In this document: positions 2,934 to 59,864 of the stretch, piece by piece
Numbering within the stretch: position 1 is the first letter of the stretch
Layout of the letters: every line of letters starts with the position of its first letter
Source of the DNA: Candidatus Liptonbacteria bacterium
GTDB taxonomy: Bacteria > Patescibacteriota > Minisyncoccia > UBA6257 > 2-01-FULL-56-20
Assembly: GCA_016182105.1 (NCBI GenBank)
Contig: JACOXZ010000010.1
Span: 1 to 62,631, forward strand
DNA length: 62,631 nucleotides
Direction: 5' to 3'
Program-made: the position numbers and the translations under genes
Notes under the pieces: model-generated
The model's input: the letters and a program-made list of their open reading frames with translations, nothing else
What the model was told of the DNA's origin: nothing
Databases searched by the model: none

Positions 2934-3479
2934 CTAGAATTGAACTTTAACTACTTCCCGCTCCGCGCCGGAGGCCGCTTCAAAAAACTTCTCTTCGCGG
3001 AAGCCGAATGTGTCGGCGATGAGGTTCGTGGGGAAAATCTGGATTTTGGTGTTCAAGTCGCGGACAGTTTCGTTGTAGAACCGCCGCGCAGCCTGCATCT
3101 TGTTTTCGGTGTCCGCGAGTTCCCTCTGGAGGTCGAGGAAATTAGCGTTGGCTTTCAAGTCAGGATAGTTTTCGGAAACCGCGAGGAGGGTTTTTAGGGT
3201 ATTCGAAAGCATATCCTCCGCGCGCTGCTTCTCTAAGGCGTTCCCAGCCGCGCCCATCGCCTGCGTCCGCGCCTTGGTCACATTCTCGAGCACGCCTTTC
3301 TCGTGCTTCGCATAACCCTTCACGGTTTCGACGACATTCGGAATAAGGTCGTACCGCCGCTTCGACTGCACATCAATATCCGAGAGCGCCTCTTTTGCAC
3401 GGAGGCGGAGTGTGACCAACCGATTGTACGTAAAAACGAGCCAAAGAACGATTGCAAGAAGTATCCAAAAGAACCACAT
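2934..3479 (-). CDS. lemA: LemA family protein
   Basis: 181 aa with an N-terminal TM helix, then YNRLVTLRLRAKEALSDIDVQSKRRYDLIPNVVETVKGYAKHE, typical of LemA. Confidence 0.85.
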   Translation of the reverse strand: MWFFWILLAIVLWLVFTYNRLVTLRLRAKEALSDIDVQSKRRYDLIPNVVETVKGYAKHEKGVLENVTKARTQAMGAAGNALEKQRAEDMLSNTLKTLLAVSENYPDLKANANFLDLQRELADTENKMQAARRFYNETVRDLNTKIQIFPTNLIADTFGFREEKFFEAASGAEREVVKVQF

Positions 3480-6317: not shown

Positions 6318-6359
6318 TTACTAAAATTATACTGACGGTCGTCAGTATAATTTTAGTAA
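6318..6359. repeat. perfect 19-bp AT-rich palindrome (4-nt spacer)
   Basis: TTACTAAAATTATACTGAC-GGTC-GTCAGTATAATTTTAGTAA, at the right border of the AT-rich island. Confidence 0.85.
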
Positions 6360-10274: not shown

Positions 10275-10420
10275 CCCCGTCACCTTAGAAAGATTTCGTT
10301 TTTCAAAACGCTTTTTGCCAAAACACGGTTTCTACTTTTTAAAAATCTGATTTGCGAATGAAGAACGTCCTCTCAAGAAAAACGGCTGGCGCTCACATCT
10401 TTCTAAGGTGCGGGGTCAAC
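10270..10420. repeat. 151-bp inverted-repeat module B abutting the -35 of the SPW/grx/trxB promoter
   Basis: GTCAA-CCCCGTCACCTTAGAAAGAT...ATCTTTCTAAGGTGCGGGG-TCAAC. The arms are 19-20 bp with one bulged T. Confidence 0.75.
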
Positions 10421-10459
10421 AAAAAAATCCCCCCCGATCACGGTCGGGGGGGATTTTTT
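10421..10459. terminator. bidirectional rho-independent terminator
   Basis: AAAAAAA-TCCCCCCGA-TCACGG-TCGGGGGGA-TTTTTT. Confidence 0.75.
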
Positions 10460-10741: not shown

Positions 10742-11458
10742 TTATTTCAAAATACTGTCAATAGCGGCCTTAAATTGAGCGTAGGGAAGGGCGCCAATAA
10801 GCTTTTGGCTGTTAACAAAAGTTGTTGGCGTTGAGTTTACGCCCAGGGCTCTTGCGTTATTATTATCTTCTTCCACTTGTCTTGCATATTTTTTGCTATC
10901 AAAACAGGAAGTAAAGGAAGAATTATCGAGCTTAAGTTCGCTGGCTAATTTAAGGAAAAGGTCTCGATTTAAGTTGCCGTTGTTTTCACGGCCGTCTTTT
11001 ATTTCGGTTTCATAAATAGCGTCATGAAAGGCCCAGAACTGCTTCTGATCTTTGGCACATTCAGCCGCCTCTGCGGCGGCAGTTGACTCTGGCCCAAGAA
11101 AGGAGAAATTCATAAAAACCATTTTTACCTTGCCGGACTTAATGTAATTTTCCCGTAAAGGAATTTCCACCTGCTCAAAAAACCGACCGCAAAAAGGGCA
11201 CTGATAATCGCCGAATTCAATCAAAGTCACCGGCGCCTTGGGGTCTCCCAAGATTACATCGCGATCTGAAGTTTTTAGATTAGAGGTTTCTTTGATAGTG
11301 GCTAACTGGTCAGAGTCTTCTTTACCAACGTCACTAACGCCACCCGTGCTTCGGCTCCCAACTAAATAGACAATCGAGCCGGAAATTAAAATTGCCGCAA
11401 CAAGAATGCTCGCTGGCAAGAGATAGTCTCGTTTCTCTTTGTTCATTTCTCCTTCCAT
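10742..11458 (-). CDS. DsbA-family thiol:disulfide oxidoreductase, membrane-anchored
   Basis: 238 aa with an N-terminal TM helix and FGDYQCPFCGRF (CPFC active site). Confidence 0.85.
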   Translation of the reverse strand: MEGEMNKEKRDYLLPASILVAAILISGSIVYLVGSRSTGGVSDVGKEDSDQLATIKETSNLKTSDRDVILGDPKAPVTLIEFGDYQCPFCGRFFEQVEIPLRENYIKSGKVKMVFMNFSFLGPESTAAAEAAECAKDQKQFWAFHDAIYETEIKDGRENNGNLNRDLFLKLASELKLDNSSFTSCFDSKKYARQVEEDNNNARALGVNSTPTTFVNSQKLIGALPYAQFKAAIDSILK

Positions 11459-11498: not shown

Positions 11499-11641
11499 CC
11501 CCCACACTAATAGTGGTTTGCGAAGCTAACTGCATTCCATGGTTAAATTCAAACAACCTGATTTTTCCCGAAAAACCTTGTTGCTTAGGCCTAACTCTGG
11601 CTTCGTCTAGAATGCCTAACCACTATTAGTGTGGGGGTCAA
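11494..11641. repeat. 148-bp inverted-repeat module C abutting the dsbA-like -35
   Basis: GTCAA-CCCCCACACTAATAGTGGTT...AACCACTATTAGTGTGGGGG-TCAA, with perfect 20-bp arms. Confidence 0.8.
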
Positions 11642-17367: not shown

Positions 17368-18234
17368 ATGGAAGAAAACAATATTGTTGTAACGCAACAA
17401 CCTGGAGGCATATGTACTGCAGCTGGCGGAACCAGAAAAACCGTAAAACTCTCAAGACCGTGGCAAACCCGAATTAAAATAAACCCTGAAACGTGTCCAT
17501 TTGAGAAACCGGAAGAACAGGAGATCGTAAAAACATACGATTTCGGCGGCGTTTGGATGAGGCTGAAAAACCTCTACACGCCGTTCCCCTACCACGAACT
17601 CATCGTCCCAGAAACATGCTGGGACGAAGAACGACTACGTTCCTTAGGCGGAATAGTAGAACTTGTTACGGCCCTCGACATTGCCGTTAAAGTAATCGAG
17701 GAGCGTAGCGAGAACAAGATTATTATGGGCGTCCACGTCGGCCCACTCGCTGGTCAAAATCAGGGACATCTTCATTATCACCTACTCTCGCCCGACCTCG
17801 CCAAAGATGAATCTCCCCTTCTACTTGGTGGCCGAGCAAGTGAGGATGAAGTTCACGGGTATACCCAAAGCAACGAACACCTTACTATCCTTGAGTCAAG
17901 CGGTGTCAAGGTGGTGGCTGGAGGACATCGAGTCGGTCAATGTTTCCTTGTCCCTAAAGAACCTTTTGCTGGAATTACGGCTTCGGGTTCGCTGGGAGAA
18001 AGCCTGAGTCGAGTGATCGATCTTTACGCCGAGCGATTCCGGAGTACTGAGGGGTTCGCACCTGATTACATGATCGGCCTGATGTTTCGAGAGAAAAAAT
18101 TCCGCTACGGATTTTATCTCCCGATCTTGAACCACTGGGGTACAACCGAGTATTTCGCCCTTTTTGGTGAAGAACCGGTGATCCTCCCGTGGTCGCATGA
18201 AGTGACTGTAGGGCATCTACAGAGAAATCAATAG
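17368..18234 (+). CDS. HIT-superfamily, GalT-like nucleotidyltransferase/phosphorylase
   Basis: 288 aa. GQNQGHLHYHLL (HxHxH-type histidine triad) and an upstream ETCPF motif. Two-lobed length similar to GalT-type enzymes. Confidence 0.55.
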   Translation: MEENNIVVTQQPGGICTAAGGTRKTVKLSRPWQTRIKINPETCPFEKPEEQEIVKTYDFGGVWMRLKNLYTPFPYHELIVPETCWDEERLRSLGGIVELVTALDIAVKVIEERSENKIIMGVHVGPLAGQNQGHLHYHLLSPDLAKDESPLLLGGRASEDEVHGYTQSNEHLTILESSGVKVVAGGHRVGQCFLVPKEPFAGITASGSLGESLSRVIDLYAERFRSTEGFAPDYMIGLMFREKKFRYGFYLPILNHWGTTEYFALFGEEPVILPWSHEVTVGHLQRNQ

Positions 18235-18239
18235 AATAT

Positions 18240-18270
18240 AAGCCGTACGACTTCGTACGGCTTATTTTTT
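18240..18270 (+). terminator. rho-independent terminator
   Basis: AGCCGTACG-ACTTC-CGTACGGCT followed by TATTTTTT. Confidence 0.7.
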
Positions 18271-18293
18271 AGTTTTTCTATAAGATCATGCCC

Positions 18294-21730: not shown

Positions 21731-22741
21731 TCACGGCCTCAAGTTCACAACTTTTTTAGATTTAGAAGACTCGTAAATCGCCTCAATAATTTTATTTGCC
21801 GCAAGACCGTCATTGGCGTCGCCGATAATTTTTTCTTTGCCGCTTACCGCTCCCAGAAAATTTCTCCACTCATCTTCCCAACTTGAGTCTTTTAGGAATT
21901 CCAGAGTCTCTATGTCCGGAACCCCGAACTCTGGCTTTCTCTTTCCTATGGTTAAAGTCTCTGGGCCGTAACTCTTTCCTAGACCTTGAACGGCCAAAAA
22001 TCCCTTATCCCCAAAAGCTTCAAAAGAAAAAATGTTCTTCCAGTTGGTGGTACTCACATGAAAAGAAGCAGTAGTGTTTTTGTTTCTCAAAATTACAAAA
22101 GCGTTGTCTTCAAGATCGGTGTTCCAAAATTTCGTTTCGGCAATGCCATAAACCTCATCAAATTCACCAGCGAACCAGCGGCACAAATCGATGAGATGAA
22201 CTCCTTGATCCAAAAGCTCTCCGCCTCCGGAGATGTCTTTATTGAAACGCCACTCTTTTTCCATTCCAAGCCGTCCGCCGTGACCGTAGCGCCCGCGAAT
22301 AAAAAGAATCTTCCCGATAAGCCCTTCGTCAAAAAGTTGTTTCGCCTTAAAGATCGCCGGGTGGAACCGATGATTGAACCCGACTTTGACGATACGTCCG
22401 CTCCCTTCCGCCGCGTGATAAAGCTTCTCGGCTTCTTGGGCATTTTTCCCGAATGGCTTCTCCGCAAGAATATGCTTTCCGTTTTCAAGCGCCTTTAGGG
22501 CAATGGGCAGAAGAAATTTATTTGGAACGGCAATGATTACGATATCTATATCCTTCGAAGCGACGAGGTCTTCCCATCTCTCAAAAATTTGAGAGTGGTG
22601 ATCCTTGGAAAACTCCAGGGCTTTTTTCCTATCAATATCGCTTACAGCGACTAAAACTGCGCCTCCCACGTTCTCTATCACCTCAGCCCGCTTCCCGCCA
22701 ATAAGACCGGCTCCGACAATGCCAACGCGGATAGTTCTCAT
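21731..22741 (-). CDS. Gfo/Idh/MocA-family NAD(P) oxidoreductase
   Basis: IRVGIVGAGLIGGKRAE...ILAEKPF. Confidence 0.85.
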   Translation of the reverse strand: MRTIRVGIVGAGLIGGKRAEVIENVGGAVLVAVSDIDRKKALEFSKDHHSQIFERWEDLVASKDIDIVIIAVPNKFLLPIALKALENGKHILAEKPFGKNAQEAEKLYHAAEGSGRIVKVGFNHRFHPAIFKAKQLFDEGLIGKILFIRGRYGHGGRLGMEKEWRFNKDISGGGELLDQGVHLIDLCRWFAGEFDEVYGIAETKFWNTDLEDNAFVILRNKNTTASFHVSTTNWKNIFSFEAFGDKGFLAVQGLGKSYGPETLTIGKRKPEFGVPDIETLEFLKDSSWEDEWRNFLGAVSGKEKIIGDANDGLAANKIIEAIYESSKSKKVVNLRP

Positions 22742-22853
22742 CCCGTTAGAAGCAGATCGCGATCTAGGCGAATCTGCAGATTTATTTTATCGTAATGACT
22801 ATACATTGATTGATATTCAGAGTTTTTGCAACGAGATCGCGGCTTCTAACGGG
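22742..22853. repeat. stop/start-bridging inverted-repeat element, copy 1 (112 bp)
   Basis: CCCGTTAGAAGCAGATCGCGATC...GATCGCGGCTTCTAACGGG. It fills the whole gap between the stop at 22856-22858 and the start at 22741. Confidence 0.85.
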
Positions 22854-22855
22854 AC

Positions 22856-23683
22856 TCATATTTTTCGGCGCAGAGTATAAAGTTCTGTCTTTGAAATCTC
22901 TTTGATCATTTCTTTATCCCATTTTCTCCAATCATCCCAAACCGCGCTTAGGAACTTGCCGGTAAGTCCATTAGAGACGCTCGAGGCAAGAAAAGTAGAG
23001 AGCTCGGCTGATTTTTCAGGGGCTACGCCGCCATCGGCTTTCTGCTTTAAGAGTTCTTGATATTTGGACTTCCCGACTTTTTTCTCGCCGGCTTTTAAAG
23101 CTTCTTCGAGGAAACTTGTGTTTACAGGACCAGGAGCGATGCAGTTTATATCAATTCCAAAATCTCTGACTTCAGCAGCGATGGTTTCGGTTAAGCGAAC
23201 AATGGCAACTTTTGAGGAATTATAAGCGCTGAAGTTAGGGAGAGGGCCGTCGCCGCCTCCGGAGAAATTAATAATTTTTCCGGATCGATTTTTGATCATC
23301 AAAGGCAGGACTTCGCGGATCATGTGGAAGGTTCCAAAAACATTGATTTCATAAGTTTTTCGCCAAAGATCAACGTCAATCTCTGAGGTGGGGCCGATTG
23401 GACCGTAGATTCCAGCGGCATTAACTAAGATATCGATTTTGCCGAATGTCTTCTTGGCTTCCTCGACTAAAGATTTAACCAAAGCATAATTTGAAACGTC
23501 AGCGGGGAAGACGGCGGGGGCGGGGAAATCTTTCTTCAAGTCAGACCGGGCTTTTTCGAGCTCATCCCTGGATCGAGCCGAGAGCATTACTTTAACGCCT
23601 TCCTTAAGAAAGGAACGGGCAACAGCCAAGCCGATGCCGCGGCTGCCGCCGGTGATCAAAGCAATTTTACCCTCGAGAATCAT
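22856..23683 (-). CDS. short-chain dehydrogenase/reductase (SDR)
   Basis: KIALITGGSRGIGLAVA...YNSSK. Confidence 0.9.
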   Translation of the reverse strand: MILEGKIALITGGSRGIGLAVARSFLKEGVKVMLSARSRDELEKARSDLKKDFPAPAVFPADVSNYALVKSLVEEAKKTFGKIDILVNAAGIYGPIGPTSEIDVDLWRKTYEINVFGTFHMIREVLPLMIKNRSGKIINFSGGGDGPLPNFSAYNSSKVAIVRLTETIAAEVRDFGIDINCIAPGPVNTSFLEEALKAGEKKVGKSKYQELLKQKADGGVAPEKSAELSTFLASSVSNGLTGKFLSAVWDDWRKWDKEMIKEISKTELYTLRRKI

Positions 23684-34116: not shown

Positions 34117-35151
34117 TTACAGAAGAGTTAAATTCGGCGCAAGATGCAATTCCTCAAACGTTAATGCGCGAGTAATAGCTGGCTTATGCATGACGCGCAA
34201 CACTGCATTCGCGATATCCACCTTGGTCGGATAATAGAATTCGGTGAGTGCTGTCGAAGTCGGACAGGGAACATTAGGGCAAGAGAGAGCGCTTGGCGCT
34301 TCCCGCAATTGCAGCGATTTCTGGGCTACTTTGGAGATAATTTCGGATCCGACACTGAATGCGCCGTTCGTAGTGTCTACCGTAAGAAGTCGTCCCGTCT
34401 TCCGCATCGAAGCAAAAATCGTTTCGTAATCAACTGGGTTCAGGGAAACAAGATCGATTAATTCAACGCTCACCTGTTCTCCAAGAAGAGAAAGTGCTTC
34501 GTAAGCGGCAACGAAACCATCGCCGTAGGCGAGAACGGTTATGTCCTTGCCCGGAACCGCCACCTTTGCATATCCCAGAGGTTCGGTGTAAAGCTCGATT
34601 GGCACATCTTGTTTCACTGGGAAGATCCACCGAGACTCCAGCATGACCACGGGATTATTGTCGCGGAGAGCGGAAACTAGGAGTCCCTTTGCCATGCGGG
34701 GCGTTGACGGTATCACCACCTTGAGGCCGAGCGCGTTCCCAAACAATGCGTAGAGCGACTGTGTATGCTGGGGGCCATTGCCCCACTGCCTTCCGACGTT
34801 GATACGGAGCACTATCGGCACCGGATTGCCTCCGCCAAACATATAGTTCCATTTTGCCGCTTGGGTAATTATCTGGTCAGCGGCCAATAAACTGAACTCC
34901 ACTCTGCCATGGTGCACGATAGGCCTAAGTCCATTGATCGCCGCCCCAACGGCCATGCCGGTAAAACCGCCCTCTGAGTCCGGCACGTCGAAAACTCGCT
35001 CGGGATATTTTGACGCGAGTCCGGTCGCAGTACCGTCCGCGGCATTTCTATAGGTAGCACCCAGACCAACGAAAAAAATATTTTTGTCGGCCTCCATCAT
35101 CTGGTCCGTGGCTTCTCTGAGAGCCTCGGTAAATTTTATGATTCTAGGCAT
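34117..35151 (-). CDS. TPP-enzyme E1 beta subunit (transketolase-like pyrimidine-binding + C-terminal domains)
   Basis: 344 aa. VFDVPDSEGGFTGMAVGAAINGLRPIV...VVMLESR. Confidence 0.85.
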   Translation of the reverse strand: MPRIIKFTEALREATDQMMEADKNIFFVGLGATYRNAADGTATGLASKYPERVFDVPDSEGGFTGMAVGAAINGLRPIVHHGRVEFSLLAADQIITQAAKWNYMFGGGNPVPIVLRINVGRQWGNGPQHTQSLYALFGNALGLKVVIPSTPRMAKGLLVSALRDNNPVVMLESRWIFPVKQDVPIELYTEPLGYAKVAVPGKDITVLAYGDGFVAAYEALSLLGEQVSVELIDLVSLNPVDYETIFASMRKTGRLLTVDTTNGAFSVGSEIISKVAQKSLQLREAPSALSCPNVPCPTSTALTEFYYPTKVDIANAVLRVMHKPAITRALTFEELHLAPNLTLL

Positions 35152-35152
35152 A

Positions 35153-35280
35153 CCCCGTAGGAAATTAAATATTTTCCGTTAGCGTCTGACGACCTTGTAG
35201 TGTGTTTGGGGAATGATTTCATATTTGTTGATTTTAGCTTTAGCTCGAAAATATTTATTTTCTCGCTATTTCCTACGGGG
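35153..35280. repeat. stop/start-bridging inverted-repeat element, copy 4 (variant termini)
   Basis: CCCCGTAGGAAAT...ATTTCCTACGGGG (13-bp arms). The upstream stop TAG lies inside the arm and the downstream ATG is 1 nt outside. Confidence 0.8.
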
Positions 35281-36223
35281 CATATAAATCGGTATAAAGA
35301 CTCTCTTTGGGCGGATAAGACGCATTCAGAGCAAAATCAATACTATCCTGAACGGTCTTTTTAATGCCGTCTTCAGCACTTACGATTTCCTGCTCCGAAA
35401 CGCCGCCGTGGAGAACGGCCTGCCTCATCTTCTTTATGGAATCTTTTTTTAATCTGTTCTCTGCGGTATCTTCCTCTCGGTACTCCTCTTCAAAAATCGG
35501 ACCGCTGTGCGCCATATGCCTGTAGGTCATACATTCGAGAACGGCGGGGTGGCCCATCCGTGCGCCAGCTATAAGTTTTTTTGCTTTTCCCAGAACATCC
35601 TCGTAATCATTGCCGTCGGCTTTGACGTATTGAATCCCAAAACCAGTTACGATTCCTTGAACATGGTGCGCGTCCGATCTCCTGTCTTTCAATTTGGAGT
35701 TTGTGGAGAATAAATTATTTTCAACCACCAATATCAACGGTAATTTGAATAATGCGGCGAGGTTAAACGTCTCATATACTATGCCTTCTTCGAAGGCTCC
35801 GTCGCCCAAGAAAACAACGGTCACGTCCGGCTTATTATTGTACTTTTGTTCAAAAGCAGTGCCGCACGCGAGCGGTACTACGCTTCCCAAAATCGGCGTT
35901 GAACCCATAAAATTCACCGATCGATCCATCATGTGCATAGAACCGCCCTTGCCACGGGAAGAACCGTTCTCCTTCCCTAAAAGCTCACAAATCATTTTTT
36001 TTAGATCGCCGCCTTTCGCCAAGTAATGACCGTGGGAACGATGATTGCCTAAAACCTTATCTTCTTTCTTGAGGGCGTCGCAAACGCCGACGGCTACCGC
36101 CTCTTGGCCAATGTAGAAATGGACGAAACTCATGATCTTCTCTTTCAGATATAGCGCGACCAGTTCTTCTTCCGCCGTCCGTATCAGGAACATTTTTTTG
36201 TAGGCCTCGAAGAGCGTGTTCAT
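35273..36223 (-). CDS. TPP-dependent dehydrogenase E1 alpha subunit
   Basis: 316 aa. GQEAVAVGV...GKGGSMH...VVFLGDGAFEEGIVYETFNLAALFKLPLILVVENN. Confidence 0.85.
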   Translation of the reverse strand: MNTLFEAYKKMFLIRTAEEELVALYLKEKIMSFVHFYIGQEAVAVGVCDALKKEDKVLGNHRSHGHYLAKGGDLKKMICELLGKENGSSRGKGGSMHMMDRSVNFMGSTPILGSVVPLACGTAFEQKYNNKPDVTVVFLGDGAFEEGIVYETFNLAALFKLPLILVVENNLFSTNSKLKDRRSDAHHVQGIVTGFGIQYVKADGNDYEDVLGKAKKLIAGARMGHPAVLECMTYRHMAHSGPIFEEEYREEDTAENRLKKDSIKKMRQAVLHGGVSEQEIVSAEDGIKKTVQDSIDFALNASYPPKESLYTDLYAP

Positions 36224-37474: not shown

Positions 37475-38266
37475 ATGGTTTCTAAAAAGATTCTAAAAAA
37501 TAAAATAAAGCAGGCCTTCCCTTTTTTGACCCCCGCCTACCGTTTCCTCAAATACGGGGTTAGGATCATGCGCTGGGTTCCAACATATGACGAGGATGAT
37601 TTAATTACAAATCACCTCTGCGATTTTTTAGAGGACGACCGCTTTATTAAAAGCCTTGCAACGACAGAAAAAGAAGGGCATCTTCAACTCGGCTATGTGG
37701 TGAGATGGCGGCTCTATACAGCCTGCTGGGCGGCAGATCACGCGAAAAACCTAGACGGAGATTTCGTGGAGTGCGGTGTGGCATATGGCGCAACAAGCCG
37801 CATGATTATGGAGTACATCGGCTTCAAAAATATAAGTAAGAAATTTTATCTCCTGGATACGTATGAAGGATTGGATGAGCGATATCTTTCTCAAGACGAA
37901 CGCTTACGTCTAGTAGAGTATAAAAAAACAGGAAGCTACCCCTACACGTCGGCCATGTATCCATTCGTAAAAAAGGCGTTTGGCTCATTCCCTAACGTAA
38001 CTATCGTAAAAGGAGCGGTACCTGAAACCTTGGGACAGGTGAAGTCGGAGAAAATAGCATATCTACATATTGATATGAACTGCACCGTGCCGGAAATAGC
38101 GGCGGCTGAATACTTCTGGCCCAAAATGGTGAAGGGGGCCGTAATGCTTTTGGATGACTACGGATTCGCCCGGGAACAGCACGACGCGTTCGACAAGTTT
38201 GCCAAAGAAAGGAGCATAGGCATTCTTTCCCTGCCTACCGGGCAAGGGTTGATGATAAAGCCCTAG
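37475..38266 (+). CDS. TylF/MycF-type O-methyltransferase
   Basis: ECGVAYGATS...LLDTYEGL...VKGAVPETL...YLHIDMN...LLDDYGF. Confidence 0.8.
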   Translation: MVSKKILKNKIKQAFPFLTPAYRFLKYGVRIMRWVPTYDEDDLITNHLCDFLEDDRFIKSLATTEKEGHLQLGYVVRWRLYTACWAADHAKNLDGDFVECGVAYGATSRMIMEYIGFKNISKKFYLLDTYEGLDERYLSQDERLRLVEYKKTGSYPYTSAMYPFVKKAFGSFPNVTIVKGAVPETLGQVKSEKIAYLHIDMNCTVPEIAAAEYFWPKMVKGAVMLLDDYGFAREQHDAFDKFAKERSIGILSLPTGQGLMIKP

Positions 38267-39246
38267 GCGGTTTTTATCTTGTCGTACCAATAATCCAAAA
38301 GTTTCCTTAGGGTCTCCTCAATGGAAATCTTGGGAGCCCAGCCGGTGAGATTCCTGCACTTTGAAGTGTCGCAAATCTGGACCGGAATATCGATGGGCCT
38401 CACTAATTTGGGATCCACTCTTTTTTCCACTTTACCCGTGAGCCCCTCCATCGAGAGCATCTTATCCAGAACCTCACCAATCGTGTATGGCGTATCTCCG
38501 CCAACGTTGTAGGCTTCTCCGGGAGAAAACTTCTGCATTAAAAGATAATAAGCCTTAACGCAATCCGTCACGTCCATAATGACCCGTTTGCTTGATAGGG
38601 TTCCCACGTTAATGACCGGATCCTGAAATCCTTTTTTGACGCGCACGATCTGGTAAGCATCCGAGGAAATTGAAAAGTTCTTGCCCCGCCTCGGACCAGT
38701 ATGAGAAAACGCTCGTGTGACAAAAAAAGGCAATTTAAGAGATCTGGCCCTTTCCCGAACATAGGTATCGGCCGCGGCCTTGCTTATGCCGTAAGGATTC
38801 ACCGGATCTATGGGAAATTTTTCGTTAATTGGTCCGGCAGATTCCGCGGGCGCTCCGTATACTTCTGACGTGGAACAAAACATCAATTTGCAGGCCGGCT
38901 GATATTCGGCTATCGCTTCCACAACGTTCACGGTTCCAACCGCATTAGCCTCGAAAGTTCCTCTCGGGTCGACAAAGCTCGTCGGCGGATGACTTTGGGC
39001 CGCCAAATGGAAAACTCCGTCAAAACGATTGTTCTTAAAAACTGCGTCGGTTAATCCGCGGCTGGTTAAATCTCCATATAAAAATTTGATCTTGTTGTAA
39101 TTTTTATCCGGGACTACGTCAAGGATGTCGGCTTCCATGCCGTTAGAAGAACGAACCAAACCGTAAACTTCGTGGTTTTCTTGAACCAGTAAATTCGCCA
39201 AATGTGGTCCGGCAAAGCCGGTAATTCCGGTTATTAAGTACTTCAT
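38263..39246 (-). CDS. GDP-mannose 4,6-dehydratase / GDP-4-keto-6-deoxymannose reductase-like SDR
   Basis: MKYLITGITGFAGPHLANLL...HLAAQSH...YGISK. Confidence 0.75.
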   Translation of the reverse strand: MKYLITGITGFAGPHLANLLVQENHEVYGLVRSSNGMEADILDVVPDKNYNKIKFLYGDLTSRGLTDAVFKNNRFDGVFHLAAQSHPPTSFVDPRGTFEANAVGTVNVVEAIAEYQPACKLMFCSTSEVYGAPAESAGPINEKFPIDPVNPYGISKAAADTYVRERARSLKLPFFVTRAFSHTGPRRGKNFSISSDAYQIVRVKKGFQDPVINVGTLSSKRVIMDVTDCVKAYYLLMQKFSPGEAYNVGGDTPYTIGEVLDKMLSMEGLTGKVEKRVDPKLVRPIDIPVQICDTSKCRNLTGWAPKISIEETLRKLLDYWYDKIKTA

Positions 39247-43979: not shown

Positions 43980-44006
43980 TGCGCCGCTAACGCGCGCGAA
44001 GCTTTA

Positions 44007-44278
44007 GAACCCATCTCAAAAATCCCTTCGGCCGCGATATAGGCAAATCTTTCGCGGCGCAAGAAGCAAGGACGAAGGTGTATCCTATGATACTCCGAGT
44101 CCGAAGCGACGTGGTGCCGCGAAAGATTGGCCATATCCCCAGGGGGTTGCGGAGATTTTCTTCTCCCACTACGTTGCGGCTTCGTCGGAGTGGCACAAGC
44201 CACACATTCCTCGCCGCGCCTTGCGTAGAGAAGAAAATCTCTCGCAACGCGGCTAGAAGGGATTTTTGAGATGGGTTC
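44007..44278. mobile_element. E1: 272-bp structured (MITE-like) element bounded by terminal inverted repeats
   Basis: Perfect 22-bp terminal inverted repeats GAACCCATCTCAAAAATCCCTT / AAGGGATTTTTGAGATGGGTTC. Internal 14+5 bp helix GTTGC-g-GAGATTTTCTTCTC / GAGAAGAAAATCTC-tc-GCAAC. Homologous to E2 in reverse orientation. Confidence 0.75.
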
Positions 44279-45215
44279 GAATAAAAGTTTTCAATCTTTT
44301 ATAGATAATCCATACGCCCCAGACGACCGGATAAATACCGTATTTCTTCGCGAAATAAATATCCATAATCTTTCTGTATTTTCTGCGCTTCCACGGAGTT
44401 TTGTTGATGTAGTAAACATATTCCGGCTGATAGGGAAGCGCTGAGAGAAAATACCACGGTTTTCCGCCGCCCGCGAAGTGGACAACGAGCGGATCGGGTT
44501 CGTTGTAGGGATATGCCCCTATGGGTATCGCGGCGGCTATGAGATTGTATTTTATGCCAAGCTCTCTGTAGTCGCCCGCAAACACAAGGTTAAGAGCGTC
44601 TTGCTCGTGATATCGCAACTTGTCCGGATACTCATAGATCAACCTGTGAAGTTTTTCTTCTATGCCGCGCTTTCTCCAAAGCTCCAAATCAACAAGAAGC
44701 ATTCCGACACTGAAATACGCGGACTCTTGCGACGCAATGGGCCAATTGATGTCTTTGCGCAGCTTTTTCAAATGCCCCTGTCTTTCTTCTTGCTGACAAT
44801 CCGCGATTGCTCCTATTGTTTTCCTGCCCAGGTCCACGTTAAATAGTTCGGAAATATCCCCTCGAATCACCACGTCAACTTCAAGATTGATTACCCTGCG
44901 ACATGTAGGGGGAAGAAAACGCCCCAAATAAACGCGGTGAAAGGCCTCTACTGGAGCGTGAAATCCCTTAGACAAATCACCAAGCGGCAGTCCTTGGTAA
45001 AGCTTTTTATCAGGAAGAACATAGTTTATCGTAAATCCATATTTCTTCTCCAGAGTCTCCAATCGCTCTTTATTTTTTGCTGATATTCCAAAATCTACGA
45101 CGTAAAGGCTTATCGGGTAATCCCCTTTTTTGTTTTCGAAAAGAGAACACAAGGCAACCCCAAGGAGCATGGCGTAATTATCATTCGTGGCAAAAACAAC
45201 AGATACTTTTTCCAT
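44253..45215 (-). CDS. glycosyltransferase family 8
   Basis: VSVVFATNDNYAMLLGVALCSLFENK...NLEVDVVIRGD. Start taken at MEKVS. The last 8 codons (RTHLKNPF*) lie in the E1 terminal repeat. Confidence 0.85.
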   Translation of the reverse strand: MEKVSVVFATNDNYAMLLGVALCSLFENKKGDYPISLYVVDFGISAKNKERLETLEKKYGFTINYVLPDKKLYQGLPLGDLSKGFHAPVEAFHRVYLGRFLPPTCRRVINLEVDVVIRGDISELFNVDLGRKTIGAIADCQQEERQGHLKKLRKDINWPIASQESAYFSVGMLLVDLELWRKRGIEEKLHRLIYEYPDKLRYHEQDALNLVFAGDYRELGIKYNLIAAAIPIGAYPYNEPDPLVVHFAGGGKPWYFLSALPYQPEYVYYINKTPWKRRKYRKIMDIYFAKKYGIYPVVWGVWIIYKRLKTFIRTHLKNPF

Positions 45216-45237
45216 TTGCTTAAAAATTATAATAGTC

Positions 45238-46098
45238 CTACACCTTATACCAGACAAACAAACGGAGAAGTGCCACTAGATTCCAAAATATAAGTTTAAT
45301 TCTGTCCCACATCTTTAAAGATTTTAAGCGCAATATAAAGATCATATTCGGGAAGTAAAGCGGTGAAAAAAACAACACAAACCTGACTTTGATATTGGAT
45401 AATACGCGTTTAATTCGCATAGACACACGTGGATTGGGATCAAGAACAAAAATTTTGGTGCGCTTATAAAAAAGAATTTCGTCGACGAGGGTAAAATGTC
45501 CCCTGACCAAACAGCGAAAAAGGAAGTCATACTCAAGAAATGGCTTGTCAATAAATTTACAATCAACAATTTTCTCGCGCCTCCAAACTCCATACGTCAT
45601 GTTGCCCTTTCCCCCAAGAATTGTAAGCAGAATAAATTCCTTGAGGCGTCCGTACAGATCCTTCTTAAACGTGAAAAATAATTTCGGATCTTCTTTTTGT
45701 GTCCTGCCTAAATCGTCGAAATGCATGAGTTTAGATATGGCAGCAATCGCTTCCTTGTCCGCATCCAAGGCGGCTATACATCTTTCCACGAAAGTCGGCG
45801 CCCGCTTATCATCGTCCGAAGCCCATATAAAATACTCACCTCTGGCATTTTTTTTGAGATATTCGAAGTTTCTGGCGTGGCCTATATTCGATCTCTGCCG
45901 TATATATTTTATACGTCGGTCCTTTTTCGCGTATTCCTCGCAGATCCGCGGAGTGTCGTCGGTAGAGGCGTTATCGGATATAACCAGCTCAAAATTTCTA
46001 TACGTCTGCGCAAGCAGCGAATCCAATGCCTCGCGCAAATAAGATTGCCCGTTATGCGTAGCTAAGCCGATGCTTACCAATTTTTCTTTAGAACCCAT
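45238..46098 (-). CDS. glycosyltransferase family 2
   Basis: MGSKEKLVSIGLATHNGQSYLREALDSLLAQTYRNFELVISDNASTDDT. The start ATG at 46098 and the GGAGG RBS lie inside the E2 terminal repeat. The track ORF extension to 46242 is read-through into E2. Confidence 0.85.
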   Translation of the reverse strand: MGSKEKLVSIGLATHNGQSYLREALDSLLAQTYRNFELVISDNASTDDTPRICEEYAKKDRRIKYIRQRSNIGHARNFEYLKKNARGEYFIWASDDDKRAPTFVERCIAALDADKEAIAAISKLMHFDDLGRTQKEDPKLFFTFKKDLYGRLKEFILLTILGGKGNMTYGVWRREKIVDCKFIDKPFLEYDFLFRCLVRGHFTLVDEILFYKRTKIFVLDPNPRVSMRIKRVLSNIKVRFVLFFSPLYFPNMIFILRLKSLKMWDRIKLIFWNLVALLRLFVWYKV

Positions 46099-46366
46099 CT
46101 TAATAATACCTCCAGCCCGCGTTGCTGGCGATTTTCTCGTATCCGCAAGGCTTGTCGAGTGAGCTGTGCTTGATGCACTGCGATCGAGGCGTAACGCAGC
46201 GGGACGGGAAAATCGCCGCAACCCCAAGGGGGATATGGCCAATTTCCGCAGTACCGGCGTCGCTTCCTCCTCGGAGTACCACAGGAGGGTACACTTTCGT
46301 CGTCGTTCCTTGGTCTTGCAGAAATTGGCTCATATCGCGAGCGGAGATATTATTAAGATGGGTTCT
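46091..46366. mobile_element. E2: 276-bp structured (MITE-like) element bounded by terminal inverted repeats, inverted relative to E1
   Basis: Terminal repeats GAACCCATCTTAATAATACCTCC / GGAGATATTATTAAGATGGGTTC (1 mismatch). Internal helix GTTGC-t-GGCGATTTTC / GAAAATCGCC-GCAAC. The core GGGGATATGGCCAAT is the reverse complement of the E1 ATTGGCCATATCCCC. Confidence 0.75.
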
Positions 46367-54676: not shown

Positions 54677-55954
54677 TCAAAAAACGGAGGATGGCTGTTC
54701 TTTCGGGTTAAGCTTGAGGAGCAATATGCCAAAAAATACTCCGAGCGTGAACCACAAATGGCGGAATAGGAAAGCATCGGCGAAAAATATATCGAGAAGA
54801 ATAAAAATTGCCGCCGCTATCCATGCCATTTCGCTATCTTGCATCTCAATTCTTTTTTCTCGAAAAACGCGGAGTGCGCTGTTACCCAATCTAAAAATAA
54901 AAAATAAAAACAATATGAATGCCCCTAACCCTCCATACACAATAACCTCGAGATAGCTGTTAAATGATTGGTGGTTGAAGCGCTCGACAATACCCGCGCC
55001 TAGATCTACGAAGGGAGCATCAGGGGTGGCAATGACGAGTCCGAGACCGAAAGGTTTACTAATAAAAAATGGGGTAGTTTTTATCCAAATCTTTGTTCTA
55101 ATCTGATTCTCAAGGGGACTTTGCGCCAGGGTTGTGATACGATGGGCCGTTCTTTGAAAAGCAACTCCATTTTGTGCCGCAAGAAGCCCGTACCCCATAA
55201 GGAAAGCGAATATAGTGATACAGAGAATACGCAGCGCTTTCTTCTTTTTGCGTTCCTTTAGGAGCGCAAAGAGACACCAGGCGACGATACCGAAAGGCAA
55301 AGACACCCAAACAGACCGCGTCGCGCTCCAAAGAATGAAATTCGCGATCATGCCCAACCAGAGCCCAAGAACAACTCTCTCTAATCGTTTTTTTGACTCG
55401 AGAAATAACCCTATCCCCGCAAAGAACACGACCCCCATCCAAAGTCCGAAAATAATCGGGTTCTCTTGGAATATTCCTCCGAGGCGACCCCCGGATCCTA
55501 CGGAAATAAAAATATTTTCATTATATGGCCCGTCGAAATAGACAGGAAGCATAACCAATGTTGATATCAAAACCGCCCTGCTTATATACCTAACGAGAAT
55601 CGGGTAACAATATACAGCAATTGCAATGGATATAAATACAAAAGAGTTGAAGAGGAATCTGGCGTAATTAAGTACGATATAATAACTCATCGCAATACCG
55701 TAATTAAAGTAATTAAATATTTGACCAGCTATAAAAAGACAGAAAAGACCGCCTAAAATAAGGCAATATGGCCGGAGAAACGGCCATATGGTTTTTAGAG
55801 ATTTTATCTTAGTTGCAATTGCCAACAGCGCTAAGGCAAGAACAATATCAACCAGTTGCGGCGAACGAGGCATTCGAATAATAAAAAAAAATGCGGCGAT
55901 CGATACCGCTCCGATGATCCATCGGGAATCTTTATTCATAAAAAAATTATCCAT
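54677..55954 (-). CDS. polytopic membrane protein, O-antigen ligase/polymerase (Wzy)-like
   Basis: 425 aa with about 10-12 TM segments, inside the glycan cluster. No strict motif verified. Confidence 0.5.
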   Translation of the reverse strand: MDNFFMNKDSRWIIGAVSIAAFFFIIRMPRSPQLVDIVLALALLAIATKIKSLKTIWPFLRPYCLILGGLFCLFIAGQIFNYFNYGIAMSYYIVLNYARFLFNSFVFISIAIAVYCYPILVRYISRAVLISTLVMLPVYFDGPYNENIFISVGSGGRLGGIFQENPIIFGLWMGVVFFAGIGLFLESKKRLERVVLGLWLGMIANFILWSATRSVWVSLPFGIVAWCLFALLKERKKKKALRILCITIFAFLMGYGLLAAQNGVAFQRTAHRITTLAQSPLENQIRTKIWIKTTPFFISKPFGLGLVIATPDAPFVDLGAGIVERFNHQSFNSYLEVIVYGGLGAFILFLFFIFRLGNSALRVFREKRIEMQDSEMAWIAAAIFILLDIFFADAFLFRHLWFTLGVFFGILLLKLNPKEQPSSVF

Positions 55955-55997: not shown

Positions 55998-56936
55998 TTA
56001 TTGAGACGAAAGTTCGCGCACAATGCTTTTATAGTCAATGTCCATTGCGTCTGAAACAGGATTCAGCCAGTTATCTCCAAGCTTACGTTTTATGAAAATA
56101 TCTTTTTTAAGACTGATGCCGCGCGCGGCTGCGAGCAAAGAAAAACAGGATAAATTCTCGCTTTTGCTGTCGTCGAACACGACTAGCTTTCCTGTTTTGC
56201 GTACGCTCCTCAAAATCGGCTCCCAGTCAATAGGAGTCATATAGCTTACATTAAAAACCGCGGGTTTCAAGCCGGTTTGTTCCATTTCGAGGCCGAGCTG
56301 CCAGCCGTACGGGAAGGAAAAATTAAAAGTGACGATCGTCGCATCGCTACCGTCCCTATACTGCACGAACTTCATATCCTTGTCCGCAAGGATCGGCTCT
56401 CCGGGATCGATAATATCGTCTTTATACATCCTCTGACTGAAACTTATAATGCGGAATCCGGGTCTGCCAAAATGGATGTCGATGATTTTCTCTGTGTCAT
56501 ACTTATTGGTAACCGCGTAGCCATCAATCCTCGCCATAGAACAAAAATCCGCGAAGTTATTGGAACTCGACTGTGGCCCTTCATATCCCATATCAACCGT
56601 GACTGGCAATATCGTGAATGAGCCCTTAGCGTGCTTGCTATTTCTTATGATGTTATAGGTGTTAACCAGCTGATCAATGCCCAAGAAAAGAAAATCAAGT
56701 TGTTTCATGAAGAATGCCGCCTTCCCGCCGCCAAGCATCACGCCGAACCCAAACCCGACAAGCGAATTCTCGGTGTTTGTCGTATTGATGATCATGCCCG
56801 TCTCTTTTACCGCAAATCCTTTCGTAAAACCGCTGATACGGGAGCCGGCGCTAACGTTCTGACCATAAACCACGAGTCCGTCGTGCGAACTGACCGCATT
56901 ACGCAGAACCGCGTTGACGTGTTCAAGATATTTCAT
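55998..56936 (-). CDS. divergent E1 beta-like (transketolase C-terminal-like) subunit
   Basis: 312 aa. NTTNTENSLVGFGFGVMLGGGK, in the position of the E1-beta EagfvG motif. Follows an E1-alpha-like gene. Confidence 0.65.
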   Translation of the reverse strand: MKYLEHVNAVLRNAVSSHDGLVVYGQNVSAGSRISGFTKGFAVKETGMIINTTNTENSLVGFGFGVMLGGGKAAFFMKQLDFLFLGIDQLVNTYNIIRNSKHAKGSFTILPVTVDMGYEGPQSSSNNFADFCSMARIDGYAVTNKYDTEKIIDIHFGRPGFRIISFSQRMYKDDIIDPGEPILADKDMKFVQYRDGSDATIVTFNFSFPYGWQLGLEMEQTGLKPAVFNVSYMTPIDWEPILRSVRKTGKLVVFDDSKSENLSCFSLLAAARGISLKKDIFIKRKLGDNWLNPVSDAMDIDYKSIVRELSSQ

Positions 56937-57034
56937 CCCGTTAGAAAATTAACAAACATAGTTTTATTGTTGGATTAATTTGCTGATTAAGTGTTTTCTT
57001 GTGGTAATTCATATCTCTTTAATTTTCTAACGGG
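56937..57034. repeat. stop/start-bridging inverted-repeat element, copy 2 (98 bp)
   Basis: CCCGTTAGAAAATT...AATTTTCTAACGGG (14-bp arms), between the stop at 57037-57039 and the start at 56936. Confidence 0.85.
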
Positions 57035-57036
57035 AT

Positions 57037-57960
57037 TCATGCTATTTCTTTTTGGAGCGCGGTAAATTGCCTGCGCGCGTCCTCTTCTAAGACCGACTGG
57101 TCAATGTGTTTTGTGAGAACAAATATCGGATCTTCGTCGCTCTGTTTAATCAGGGGCCATTCATTCAAGGCAACTTCCGGAGCAGGACCAGAGTGATAGT
57201 TAATGAACTCGCCTTCCGGAAACTCCGGAGAACTTGGCAGGCGCCGTTCACCGAGCGTGGCCACCCTCACTTCAACGCACGCTGGCGCTCTATCCTCTAT
57301 AGTAAACTTCTTAATGTCCTTTAGGGTATCTATGTAACGATACGGGTCATTGCCCTCAAGATGGATGTAGCGGATGTTCATAGATTTTGCGAGAAGAGAG
57401 AGGTCAATATGGCAACGCCTCTGGTCAATACGAGTGGACATGGACCACTCATTGTTCTCTATCAAAAAAATGACAGGGAGTTTCATACTTTGCGCCATGA
57501 GTATATTTTCGTAGAATGACCCCTCTTCTATGGCACCGTCCCCCCCCATAACGATGGTCACGTTCTTTTTGCCGGCTACCTTACCAGCCATCGCGAGGCC
57601 CACCGCGACCGGAAACTGATTGCCAAGGATGCTTGATGTAAAAACAATATTCCTTTCTGGGTTTAAAAGATTCATTGAGCCGGAGTGTCCGGCATTGAGT
57701 CCCGTCGGCTTCAAAAAGTATTCGTCAAGAATTGGACGCAGCTTCCCCGCGCGGGCGAGATTATAAGCTATGTTGCGGTGCGTGGGGAGCAAGTTGTCAT
57801 CCTTTTCTAAAATCTCGCTCACAGAAACCGCGATAGCCTCATGACCCAGCGCAAGGTGAACAGACACCTTAAGTTTTTTGGCTTTATACTCTTCGTTCAC
57901 GATCATCTGACTGATACGCAAACGAATAATCTCTTCAGCAATTTTATTTTTTGAATTCAT
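57037..57960 (-). CDS. TPP-dependent E1 alpha-like subunit
   Basis: LGHEAIAVSV...GHSGSMN...IVMGGDGAIEEGSFYENILMAQSMKLPVIFLIENN. Confidence 0.8.
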   Translation of the reverse strand: MNSKNKIAEEIIRLRISQMIVNEEYKAKKLKVSVHLALGHEAIAVSVSEILEKDDNLLPTHRNIAYNLARAGKLRPILDEYFLKPTGLNAGHSGSMNLLNPERNIVFTSSILGNQFPVAVGLAMAGKVAGKKNVTIVMGGDGAIEEGSFYENILMAQSMKLPVIFLIENNEWSMSTRIDQRRCHIDLSLLAKSMNIRYIHLEGNDPYRYIDTLKDIKKFTIEDRAPACVEVRVATLGERRLPSSPEFPEGEFINYHSGPAPEVALNEWPLIKQSDEDPIFVLTKHIDQSVLEEDARRQFTALQKEIA

Positions 57961-57964
57961 CTCG

Positions 57965-58864
57965 TTAAGATCCGAGCGTGCTTGTATAGGGATCGATGGT
58001 CTTTATGCCTTCTTTAAAACCGATCTCTGGTTTCCATCCTAAAAGCTCCTTTGCTTTTTTATTGGAAGGGTTGCGCATATTCGCATCGTGAGGATTCGAT
58101 TCTATAACCTTCACTTTTTTATGAAACAGCTTCTCGCTTTCACTTACAACATCCCCCATCGTTATCATCTCATCGCCTGAAAGATTGAATATCTGAAAAT
58201 CGTTCCTGCCAAAAGCCAGACGGATGCCTCGAGCAATATCTACGACGTGTACAAAGCGGCGGCCTGACTTACGGGAACGCATAAGCGTCACGGTGTCATT
58301 GCGCTTTACGTCATCCGCGACAGATTCCACGGCACACCAATCATCTTTGCGGGGCCCGTAGACAATAGCAAAACGTAAAATAGTTACCGGGATGAATCCA
58401 CGCTTATATTGCTCGCGAAGGTTCGCTTCGCTCACGAGCTTTGAAAGCGCATATTCGGAGGTGTGGCCTGTGATATCAATGAACGAATCTTCATCTTTTT
58501 CTTCATCACCCACGAATTTCTCATATACCCATTCGCTTGAAGGAAATATGAGTTGTTTCGCTTTTTTCGCCTGGGCTATGCGCATCACATTCAGGAGCCC
58601 CATAACATTCGTCGCGAAACATTCATACGGCTTGCCGGCGCACTGGCTGTCGCGCGAAAGTGCGGCAAGATGCACAATCGCGTCTGCATCTTCTGGAAAA
58701 CTATCGGCAATTGCAGAATCTCTGACGTCACCGATCTTAAACCCGTAAGAAAGTTCATTCTTCTTAAGAAGATCGAAGCCAATAACTTCAATGCCCTCCC
58801 TCAAACATTGTCTAACTAGCTCTGTTCCTATGAAACCCTCAGATCCGGTTACGATGATTTTCAT
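57965..58864 (-). CDS. NAD-dependent epimerase/dehydratase
   Basis: MKIIVTGSEGFIGTELV...YALSK. Confidence 0.85.
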   Translation of the reverse strand: MKIIVTGSEGFIGTELVRQCLREGIEVIGFDLLKKNELSYGFKIGDVRDSAIADSFPEDADAIVHLAALSRDSQCAGKPYECFATNVMGLLNVMRIAQAKKAKQLIFPSSEWVYEKFVGDEEKDEDSFIDITGHTSEYALSKLVSEANLREQYKRGFIPVTILRFAIVYGPRKDDWCAVESVADDVKRNDTVTLMRSRKSGRRFVHVVDIARGIRLAFGRNDFQIFNLSGDEMITMGDVVSESEKLFHKKVKVIESNPHDANMRNPSNKKAKELLGWKPEIGFKEGIKTIDPYTSTLGS

Positions 58865-58984
58865 CCCGTTAGAAGCAGATCGCGATCAACACGATTCTGC
58901 AAGGTTATTTTATGGCAACGATTATGCATCGGGTAAAATTATAGTTTTAACAATTTTAACAAAGCGATCGCGGCTTCTAACGGG
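58865..58984. repeat. stop/start-bridging inverted-repeat element, copy 3 (120 bp)
   Basis: Its termini are identical to copy 1 (23 nt on the left, 20 nt on the right). The upstream ORF stops at the TAG inside the arm (58977-58979). Confidence 0.85.
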
Positions 58985-59864
58985 ATTCATAGTCACGAAT
59001 TGTTTTTTTAATTCCTGTTTTTATATCAACCAGCGGACGCCAGCCGAGATCTCTACGTATATTTTTGAGCCCCGCATAGGCTGCATTCTGAAGTTTCCCG
59101 CGCGATGTACGGAAAAATGCGTTGTAATATTCCCTACTCGCTCCCATTTCTTTGCAGACCATCTCTGCGATGTCTCGCACAGGCGTGAGGTGGCCCGAGC
59201 CCAGGTTGTAAGTCGCACGACCCTTCCCACGCAGGGCGGCATCTGCAAACGCCCGCGCCACATCCGACACATATATGAAATCACCCTGTGCGAGCGGATA
59301 CTTGAGCCGAAGCGGAACATTTCCTAGAACGGTGCGCATTATGTATGGTATAAGTGAGCCGGTCCTTTGTCCATATCCATAAGGGTTGAAGGGACGCAGC
59401 CAGATAAAATCCATATTTCTTTCCTTCGCAAGCTCCTCTCCCATAAGATGAAGGGCGTGTTTCGCTGCTGTAAACGCAGTCACTGGCGTAATGCTCATTT
59501 CCTCGTTAAGCTTGCCGATGCTCTTCCCGTATTCAAAAGAGCTTCCAGCCGCAACTATTTTCTTACAGCCGATATCTGCAAGAGCGGAAAAAATATTAAG
59601 ACTTCCCTCAAGGTTTTTCACGCTTTGTGCGTATGAAAAATCGGGAATGCCTTCCCAGGCGAGATGAACCGCAACGTGAGGCTTGAATTTTTTAAGCCGC
59701 CCTTTCCATTTCGCGATGTCAGAAAGATCGCCTTTTATAAAATCGATGCCGCGCTCCTGATGGTTTTTGCGGGAGAGCACAAGCAGACGATGCCCCCGTT
59801 TTTTAAGTTCTTGAATCGTGTAACGGCCTATAAAACCAGTGCCTCCAGTCACGAATACCCTCAT
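58977..59864 (-). CDS. NAD-dependent epimerase/dehydratase
   Basis: MRVFVTGGTGFIGRYTI... Confidence 0.85.
   Translation of the reverse strand: MRVFVTGGTGFIGRYTIQELKKRGHRLLVLSRKNHQERGIDFIKGDLSDIAKWKGRLKKFKPHVAVHLAWEGIPDFSYAQSVKNLEGSLNIFSALADIGCKKIVAAGSSFEYGKSIGKLNEEMSITPVTAFTAAKHALHLMGEELAKERNMDFIWLRPFNPYGYGQRTGSLIPYIMRTVLGNVPLRLKYPLAQGDFIYVSDVARAFADAALRGKGRATYNLGSGHLTPVRDIAEMVCKEMGASREYYNAFFRTSRGKLQNAAYAGLKNIRRDLGWRPLVDIKTGIKKTIRDYESR

Follow-up and report, generated by a model that had tools for sequence, protein, structure and literature searches.

Ribosomes read through Rickettsia palindromic elements (RPEs) in frame. In Magnusiomyces mitochondria, byp elements are passed over by translational bypassing, from one to the other of two matching codons that the insertion has created. 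Correia elements duplicate TA. The hairpins of Correia elements (CREE/NEMIS, Neisseria) are cleaved by RNase III, and ERIC elements of enterobacteria change RNase E sensitivity (PMC10969869, PMC2649163). Among the DDE transposons, piggyBac targets TTAA, with the variants TAAA, TCAA and TATG, and its terminal inverted repeats (TIRs) begin with CCCTT and similar sequences; its prokaryotic relative, IS1380, duplicates 4-5 bp (PMC10813416). Little termination-reinitiation coupling is left in E. coli and Haloferax once stop and start are about 20 nt apart in linear sequence (PMC10666635). Here we describe two hairpins at E1 alpha/beta gene junctions in a contig of Candidatus Liptonbacteria bacterium (62,631 nt, the whole stretch of DNA analyzed, hereafter the window), which very probably are mobile insertions and not tied specifically to E1. 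Judged from sequence, each of them is one copy of a non-autonomous, MITE-like family of transposable elements.

All genes and elements under discussion are on the minus strand. The two inverted repeats (35153-35280 and 56936-57035) fill the intervals from alpha stop to beta start in two E1 pairs, alpha-1/beta-1 (35273-36223, Pfam E1_dh, and 34117-35151, Pfam Transket_pyr and Transketolase_C) and alpha-2/beta-2 (57037-57960, E1_dh, and 55998-56936, Transketolase_C). Copy 1 (35153-35280) is 128 nt long and has the ends C...G. Its arms are CCCCGTAGGAAAT (35280-35268) and ATTTCCTACGGGG (35165-35153), and a repeat finder extends the repeat to 16 nt with 94% complementarity (35150-35165 with 35268-35283). 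The alpha-1 stop TAG (35275-35273) lies within the left arm, and the beta-1 ATG (35151-35149) begins 1 nt past the right arm. Copy 2 (56936-57035) is 100 nt long with the ends T...A, and its 18-nt arms, ATCCCGTTAGAAAATTAA (57036-57019) and TTAATTTTCTAACGGGAT (56952-56935), are 100% complementary. The alpha-2 stop TGA (57039-57037) adjoins this helix, whose pairing ends with the first two bases (A and U) of the beta-2 AUG (56936-56934). RNA folding of the sense strand gave -37.9 kcal/mol for copy 1 (z = -5.2) and -25.0 kcal/mol for copy 2 (z = -4.7), with 0 of 200 shuffles as stable in each case; in both cases the predicted helix either encloses the alpha stop or begins directly behind it, and it reaches into the beta AUG. 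The original prediction had placed an inverted repeat exactly between alpha stop and beta start at both junctions, with a helix that sets the two codons at its base, and the arms, coordinates and fold geometry agree with it. Its limits for the first element are correct, while those for the second (56937-57034) are 1 nt short at each end. After insertion, the linear gap from stop to start is 121 nt for beta-1 and 100 nt for beta-2. An exact-protein lookup for beta-1 returned no record. The closest named homologues of both beta subunits are from 'Patescibacteria group bacterium' MAGs, and the gene order of the window is that of a Hainich groundwater contig, at 74-77% nucleotide identity; the genome is by these signs probably one of the Parcubacteria/Paceibacteria type within Patescibacteria.

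Both hairpins are flanked by target-site duplications (TSDs) of 4 bp. On the sense strand the copy 1 junction reads ...gatttaTATG-CCCCGTAGGAAAT...ATTTCCTACGGGG-TATGcctaga, in which the TATG read from sequence on the left (35281-35284) is repeated on the right (35149-35152), where it includes the beta-1 start ATG (35149-35151). The copy 2 junction reads ...atagcATGA-ATCCCGTTAGAAAATTAA...TTAATTTTCTAACGGGAT-GAaatat; the left TGAA (57036-57039) includes the alpha-2 stop TGA (57037-57039), and the right TGAA (56932-56935) forms the beta-2 ATG (56934-56936) together with the terminal A of the element (56936). Two further copies were found in the window. The third (58864-58985, 122 nt) lies between two NAD-dependent epimerase genes and has the TSD TGAA at 58986-58989 and 58860-58863; the stop of the gene upstream of it (epimerase, 58977-59864) is now the TAG of the arm (58977-58979). 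The fourth (22741-22854, 114 nt) lies at the junction of a short-chain dehydrogenase gene and a GFO/IDH/MocA oxidoreductase gene, with the TSD TGAG at 22855-22858 and 22737-22740. The terminal sequence (A)TCCCGTTAGAAGC closes these two copies as well, and the interior of the fourth is 70% identical to that of the third (random pairs of copies, 55 +/- 5%). Both share an operon with the E1 copies and stand at junctions unrelated to E1. In all four copies, which lie within 62 kb and have the TSDs TATG, TGAA, TGAA and TGAG, the arms are 13-18 nt long and perfect or near-perfect.

Homologous loci have these sites empty. Alignments of the window to all nine fetched homologous loci (L001-L009) stop at 35145/35278, and the alpha/beta junction has no element in six distinct homologous E1 loci (0/6). 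The closest homologous locus for copy 1 (L001, beta 92% identical) has the empty site tatATGCCTGA, with an alpha/beta overlap of 8 nt; the overlap in L006 is 11 nt, and gaps of 1 nt and 10 nt were found in L002 and L130. For copy 2, L133 and L134 have the empty site gcATGAaatat, a simple ATGA overlap. Each empty site equals the occupied site minus the element and one TSD, in L001 and L006 for copy 1, in L133 and L134 for copy 2, and in L133 for copy 3. That the hairpins are insertions, as had been proposed, is thus borne out by empty homologous loci and flanking TSDs, and the suggested comparison with homologous E1 pairs gave overlapping or abutting genes, including the predicted ATGA. At the epimerase junction, the empty site of L133 reads gactATGAaaat, and the upstream gene there extends 26 nt into the next gene. 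Related copies occupy the same position in L130 and L134; their interiors and that of the window copy are no closer mutually than to other members of the family, so that orthology of the three is not demonstrable. The copy in L134 (1546-1690) is decaying, with the right arm TTCTAATGGA and with TAA instead of TGA as the upstream stop, and both flanking genes are intact. Full integrity of the arms is therefore seemingly not needed.

The junctions are accounted for by the way in which the element inserts. At beta-2, it went into an ATGAA stop/start overlap, where the left TGAA preserves the alpha-2 stop and the right TGAA, with the terminal A of the element, remakes the ATG. At beta-1, it went into tTATGcc, where the alpha/beta overlap would have been 8 nt, as in L001; the right TATG preserves the beta start, and alpha-1 now stops one codon later, at the TAG borne by the arm (CCG TAG). 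The insertion alters the C-terminus of alpha-1 from ...DLYA* to ...DLYAP*. In five copies with the ends C..G (L022, L024, L040, L093 and L112), the left copy of the target is ATGAA and the working right copy is GTGAA; the first base of the working start codon is therefore donated by the element. The exact placement from stop to start is attributable to the choice of site and the mode of insertion, a 4-bp TSD made at the start codon, and not to selection at E1. For annotation, the hairpins of the window should be read as insertions outside E1 biology, which have altered the C-termini of alpha-1 and of the product of the epimerase gene 58977-59864.

Other genomes and metagenomes, chiefly of Patescibacteria, yielded more than 250 copies with conserved arms. 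The copies are 100-130 bp long (92-129 bp as measured in the first family), with an AT-rich interior that contains no ORF, and their TIRs read YCCCGT(T)AG(G)AA, that is, YCCCGTTAGAA or CCCCGTAGGAA. A genome scan with the pattern CCCGTTAGAA-N(70-100)-TTCTAACGGG obtained at least 120 loci; those listed are mostly from Patescibacteria MAGs, and some are labelled Omnitrophota, Planctomycetota, Desulfobacterota and others. In the first family, 133 copies were scored (the 120 genome loci listed and the window). The base before CCCG is complementary to the base after CGGG in 97% of the 133 (T..A or C..G), and these bases therefore belong to the element itself. The flanks follow R-TNNA-Y, and the central 4-mer is the same on both sides in 82/133. 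The TSD consensus is TNNA, with TGAA/TTCA, TAAA/TTTA and TGAG as the commonest forms. A metagenome scan with the copy 1 variant (CCCGTAGGAA...TTCCTACGGG) obtained at least 120 loci of a sister subfamily. Among the metagenome loci listed, 18 copies can be aligned to copy 1 from end to end, with identities of 72-78% and conserved interior blocks. In the second family, 91% of copies have C..G ends, the TSD is YATR (TATA, CATA, TATG or CATG), and the 4-mer is identical on both sides in 67 of 112 copies. Apart from an autonomous partner, the window copies have the features by which a MITE is recognized: TIRs, a fixed 4-bp TSD, small non-coding dispersed copies and empty sites. Going by MAG labels alone, the spread crosses phyla, which is unusual for a MITE.

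Copies from the same locus can be much closer to each other than random pairs (0.95, 1.0 and 0.74 vs 0.55 +/- 0.05), which is consistent with proliferation within genomes. In about 1.5 Mb of fetched loci, the search for an autonomous element, one in which these TIRs enclose a transposase gene, was negative, and the 20 window ORFs scanned with Pfam include no transposase. A candidate for a full-length IS with the TIRs of the family, in L065, is actually a DNA polymerase III alpha gene. One subfamily (L015-L130, 28 copies, including 22741-22854 and 58864-58985 of the window) has a conserved asymmetric internal loop, with CGC in the 5' arm and T in the 3' arm, and beyond it a second, covarying stem of 7 bp; its orientation to the downstream gene is constant (28/28). 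In a sister subfamily with a local hairpin beside one arm, both orientations occur. Tandem elements that share one TSD, or copies with a duplicated right end, were also observed (L030:7674-7895, L152:3371-3627, L193:3773-4029, L112:956-1053 and L129:3873-3900), and their arrangement suggests repeated insertion at one hot spot or beside an existing copy. Literature searches on the TIR sequence, on start-codon MITEs and on MITEs of Patescibacteria returned no description of the family and no paper on any MITE that rebuilds start codons, and the terms 'start codon' and 'stop codon' are both absent from a 2024 review of MITEs.

A known class of another kind might instead account for the hairpins: integron attC sites, for instance, or REP-type hairpins, or a structured RNA already described. 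The arm motifs GTTAGAA and TTCTAAC do resemble the core and inverse core of attC, and short versions that consist of the hairpin only are present in L073 and L102. In attC, however, the inverse core RYYYAAC comes first (5') and the core GTTRRRY last (3'). The order here is GTTAGAA...TTCTAAC on both strands, the reverse of attC, and attC was rejected for this reason. No integrase was found among the window ORFs scanned, and a search of Rfam 15 gave no match to the elements at gathering score or at relaxed thresholds (E <= 10), with nothing better than E ~1; the sole Rfam hit of the window is a tRNA gene (1775-1861, minus strand). Since the 4-bp flanking duplications and the empty sites indicate transposition, we regard membership in any such class as most improbable. 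The hairpin-only versions of the family arms (CCCGTTAGA...TCTAACGGG) have loops of 3-35 nt (L073:1263-1290, L102:3953-3979, L029:1796-1850 and L062:6508-6553), and the closing helix thus occurs without the 100-nt interior as well.

Other repeats were observed in the window. Two MITE-like elements with different TIRs (CCCCGCACCTTAGAAAGAT and CCCCCACACTAATAGTGG), at 10275-10415 and 11499-11637, bracket a DsbA-like thioredoxin gene (10742-11458); each has a TTGA duplication, which is followed by TTGAC(G/C), resembling the -35 box of the promoter of the next gene. Two related 278-bp elements (44004-44281 and 46090-46366), with TIRs of 24-26 nt (TTAGAACCCATCT...) and GC-rich interiors, stand in inverted orientation on either side of GT8 and GT2 glycosyltransferase genes (44253-46242), in the manner of a composite unit, and the ORFs beside them, listed with TTG starts, may be truncated. 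Short palindromes are present at 6318-6359, 10422-10459 and 18232-18271. Among them are a 20-bp inverted repeat without mismatches, its arms 2 nt apart (TTACTAAAATTATACTGACG), and a G/C-rich stem between runs of A and T that resembles a bidirectional terminator (AAAAAATCCCCCCCGA/TCGGGGGGGATTTTTT); the third of the palindromes sits between convergent genes.

Copies of the family are strongly associated with start codons. In the first family, CGGG is directly followed in 72 of 135 copies by an ORF that has 80 or more codons or runs off the end of the locus, and in the second family the ATG of a gene lies 0-2 nt past CGGG in 37/125. An ORF of 80 codons or more follows at 62 of the 80 junctions with RTG(A/G)A (78%), compared with an expectation of 24% (p = 2e-23), which was taken from equivalent non-coding pentamers of the same loci with the elements removed (268 against 835) and relies on crude gene calls. 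Copies away from start codons are chiefly on TTGAC, TTTAC or TATAAT strings, which resemble -35/-10 hexamers. The genes just downstream of elements encode 105 distinct proteins, with matches to 152 Pfam families, and they include ATP synthase alpha and beta, SecD/F, ribosome recycling factor (RRF), GrpE, Mur ligases, topoisomerase I, aminoacyl-tRNA synthetases, ClpP, FtsW and PGK. The only E1 beta subunits among the 105 are the two of the window itself (0/102 outside the window). With downstream genes so diverse, and E1 beta confined to the window, there is no preference for E1.

These counts bear on the proposal that the helix is a selected, E1-specific bridge, which would keep the two subunits at 1:1 by reinitiation across the helix foot. 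Its geometry fits, with the stop at the 5' foot and the AUG at the 3' foot, and if coupling survives at these junctions a bridge would be required, as a linear distance of about 20 nt nearly abolishes it (PMC10666635). That both E1 junctions of the window were hit has a chance of about 0.006, a rough and post hoc figure (3/27 eligible RTGRA starts x 1/19 eligible YATG starts). From these two hits the original prediction had drawn a function at E1, which is not supported: the same family occupies two window junctions unrelated to E1, and E1 beta is found 0/102 times among downstream genes outside the window. Additionally, none of the six distinct homologous E1 loci has the element, and the hairpin shows no sign of better preservation at start codons than elsewhere. 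We reject E1 specificity on the non-E1 copies, the outside genes and the empty E1 loci taken together, and selection of the helix as an E1 bridge is accordingly very unlikely.

The accumulation at start codons is better understood from the host genomes. In gene-dense, SD-poor and often leaderless-looking genomes, the start codon would be one of the few places where an insertion spares both neighbours, and copies presumably pile up there because insertion leaves both neighbouring genes intact. The enrichment exceeds the prediction of simple tolerance, and active targeting of start codons, or a function, may act beside it. From the sequences alone, this is an element family common in Patescibacteria and other groundwater lineages, with many copies in the Hainich wells, and essential genes are among those whose start codons it directly occupies. 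Such elements could be used as markers of strain-level variation, possibly of precise excision.

Since essential genes lie downstream of many copies, the downstream gene is presumably still translated, and some route of initiation must exist. Shine-Dalgarno (SD) sequences are nearly absent from the gene starts of the window, and none was seen upstream of either beta ATG. The observation in the original prediction that the beta AUG has no SD is therefore true, but it is the norm in the window and not a trait of the beta genes. In several window genes, such as 38263-39246, 2934-3479 and 54677-55954, a -10-like box precedes the ATG by 6-10 nt, and SD-less starts with such hexamers suggest leaderless or short-leader mRNAs. 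In the folded RNA, some bases of the downstream AUG, which has no SD, are paired at the helix's 3' foot. A ribosome that finishes the upstream frame, or that starts at the duplicated left AUG, would unwind the left arm; the right arm would thereby be released together with its AUG, until then kept by the helix within a helix width of the stop. A terminating ribosome covers about 12-15 nt downstream, and as the stop is in or next to the left arm, the outer helix would then have to melt. Among short ORFs from the left ATG, 18 of 51 extend to the right arm, which we count in favor of unmasking, and only 1/51 is open in frame through the entire element. We also count in its favor that two frames of the right arm are closed by stop codons right at the ATG, one by a TAA that lies 7 nt upstream and the other by the TGA of ATGA. 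We prefer unmasking combined with proximity coupling as the translation mechanism, for the whole family rather than for E1, and hold this preference tentatively.

No sign of selection on the RNA helix itself was seen. The arms are 95% paired, and 9 of 21 pairs have changed on both sides (compensatory); this cannot serve as proof of RNA selection, as co-evolving transposon ends would yield the same pattern. At arm positions that are not Watson-Crick pairs there is no bias to G-U on the sense strand (6 G-U vs 15 A-C), and the copies at start codons fold no better than other copies, those of one subfamily (the second family) folding worse. Either of these two comparisons could have spoken for a selected helix, and both were negative.

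The main alternative to unmasking is cleavage by RNase III. The element would then be a mobile cis-acting expression module, in which cutting of the hairpin leaves an mRNA with a leader of a few nucleotides, suited to a leaderless-type genome, and makes the insertion near-harmless or useful. The helices are long and near-continuous (18+7 bp, 17+11 bp and, in the asymmetric-loop subfamily, 14+7 bp), cleavage of Correia TIR hairpins is documented (PMC10969869, PMC2649163), and the setting is favorable, with window genes that lack SD, several of which have the -10-like box 6-10 nt before the ATG, and with essential genes downstream of many copies. Copies without an abutting upstream gene also show -10-like boxes, peaking 6-7 nt before the left ATG. 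Greater fold stability at start codons was not seen, which speaks against it, and we consider it possible but less probable than unmasking.

Alternatively, an outward promoter or internal ribosome-binding site (RBS) in the element could drive the downstream gene independently of the upstream one. The AT-rich interiors are rich in -10-like hexamers, but these have no strand bias (86 antisense vs 94 sense). There is one weak sigma-70-like match (9/12 positions) in the copy at 58864-58985, but no sigma-70-like promoter was found in copies 1 and 2. Similarly, AAGGAG-like strings are present inside a few copies of other genomes, but the right arm has no SD-like sequence just before the ATG. The fixed orientation of one subfamily to its downstream gene would also fit a promoter. 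On balance, we think such a signal unlikely.

A more far-reaching reading goes beyond unmasking and proximity coupling. The elements would be a cross-phylum, piggyBac/IS1380-like family adapted to start codons, which inserts at, or survives only at, RTG starts and promoter hexamers, rebuilds the signal from its own base and the TSD, and has a helix across which ribosomes reach the true AUG from the upstream stop, or from the duplicated 5' AUG, over 100-130 nt. We consider this combination improbable. Were it true, nature would itself provide an example of structure-bridged reinitiation, or of bypass at initiation, that is tolerated even before essential genes. In any case, the junctions are a natural experiment on whether translation can start at an AUG under the foot of a strong helix, at least 100 nt past the previous stop, and the limit of about 20 nt for coupling in reporters makes them a sharp test case.

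Comparison with known systems shows likeness on different points. The empty E1 sites are classic coupled subunit junctions of the ATGA/TGATG termination-reinitiation type, with ATGA and with overlaps of 8 and 11 nt. The occupied sites differ from these: stop and start neither overlap nor lie a few nucleotides apart, as linear coupling demands, the linear gaps being 121 and 100 nt, and only the folded helix brings the two codons together. RPEs and Magnusiomyces byp elements share with the present family that they are small palindromic mobile insertions, which persist within coding sequence or at its margin because the host product is still made. The present elements lie at the start codon and not within the reading frame, and we have no evidence for bypassing here.

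By its ends, the family recalls piggyBac/IS1380, with CCC...GGG and a 4-bp TSD whose consensus is palindromic and of the T...A type. The canonical piggyBac TIR, CCCTAGAAAGATA, resembles CCCGTTAGAAAGATA of L011. Unlike piggyBac, the family carries an extra Y...R base of its own outside CCC, and its targets are TGAA/YATR and not TTAA. As no transposase partner was found, descent from piggyBac/IS1380 is only a lead. Correia and ERIC elements and the present family are all 100-150 bp long and non-coding, with TIRs and target duplications; they are often co-transcribed in operons, where the long RNA hairpin formed by the TIRs affects the flanking cistrons. The TIR sequences are unrelated, the present family duplicates 4 bp (TNNA or YATR) where Correia duplicates TA, and Correia and ERIC are each restricted to one bacterial group, while the present family is found, by MAG labels, in several phyla. 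In their presumed action, the elements would nevertheless most resemble Correia and ERIC in operons.
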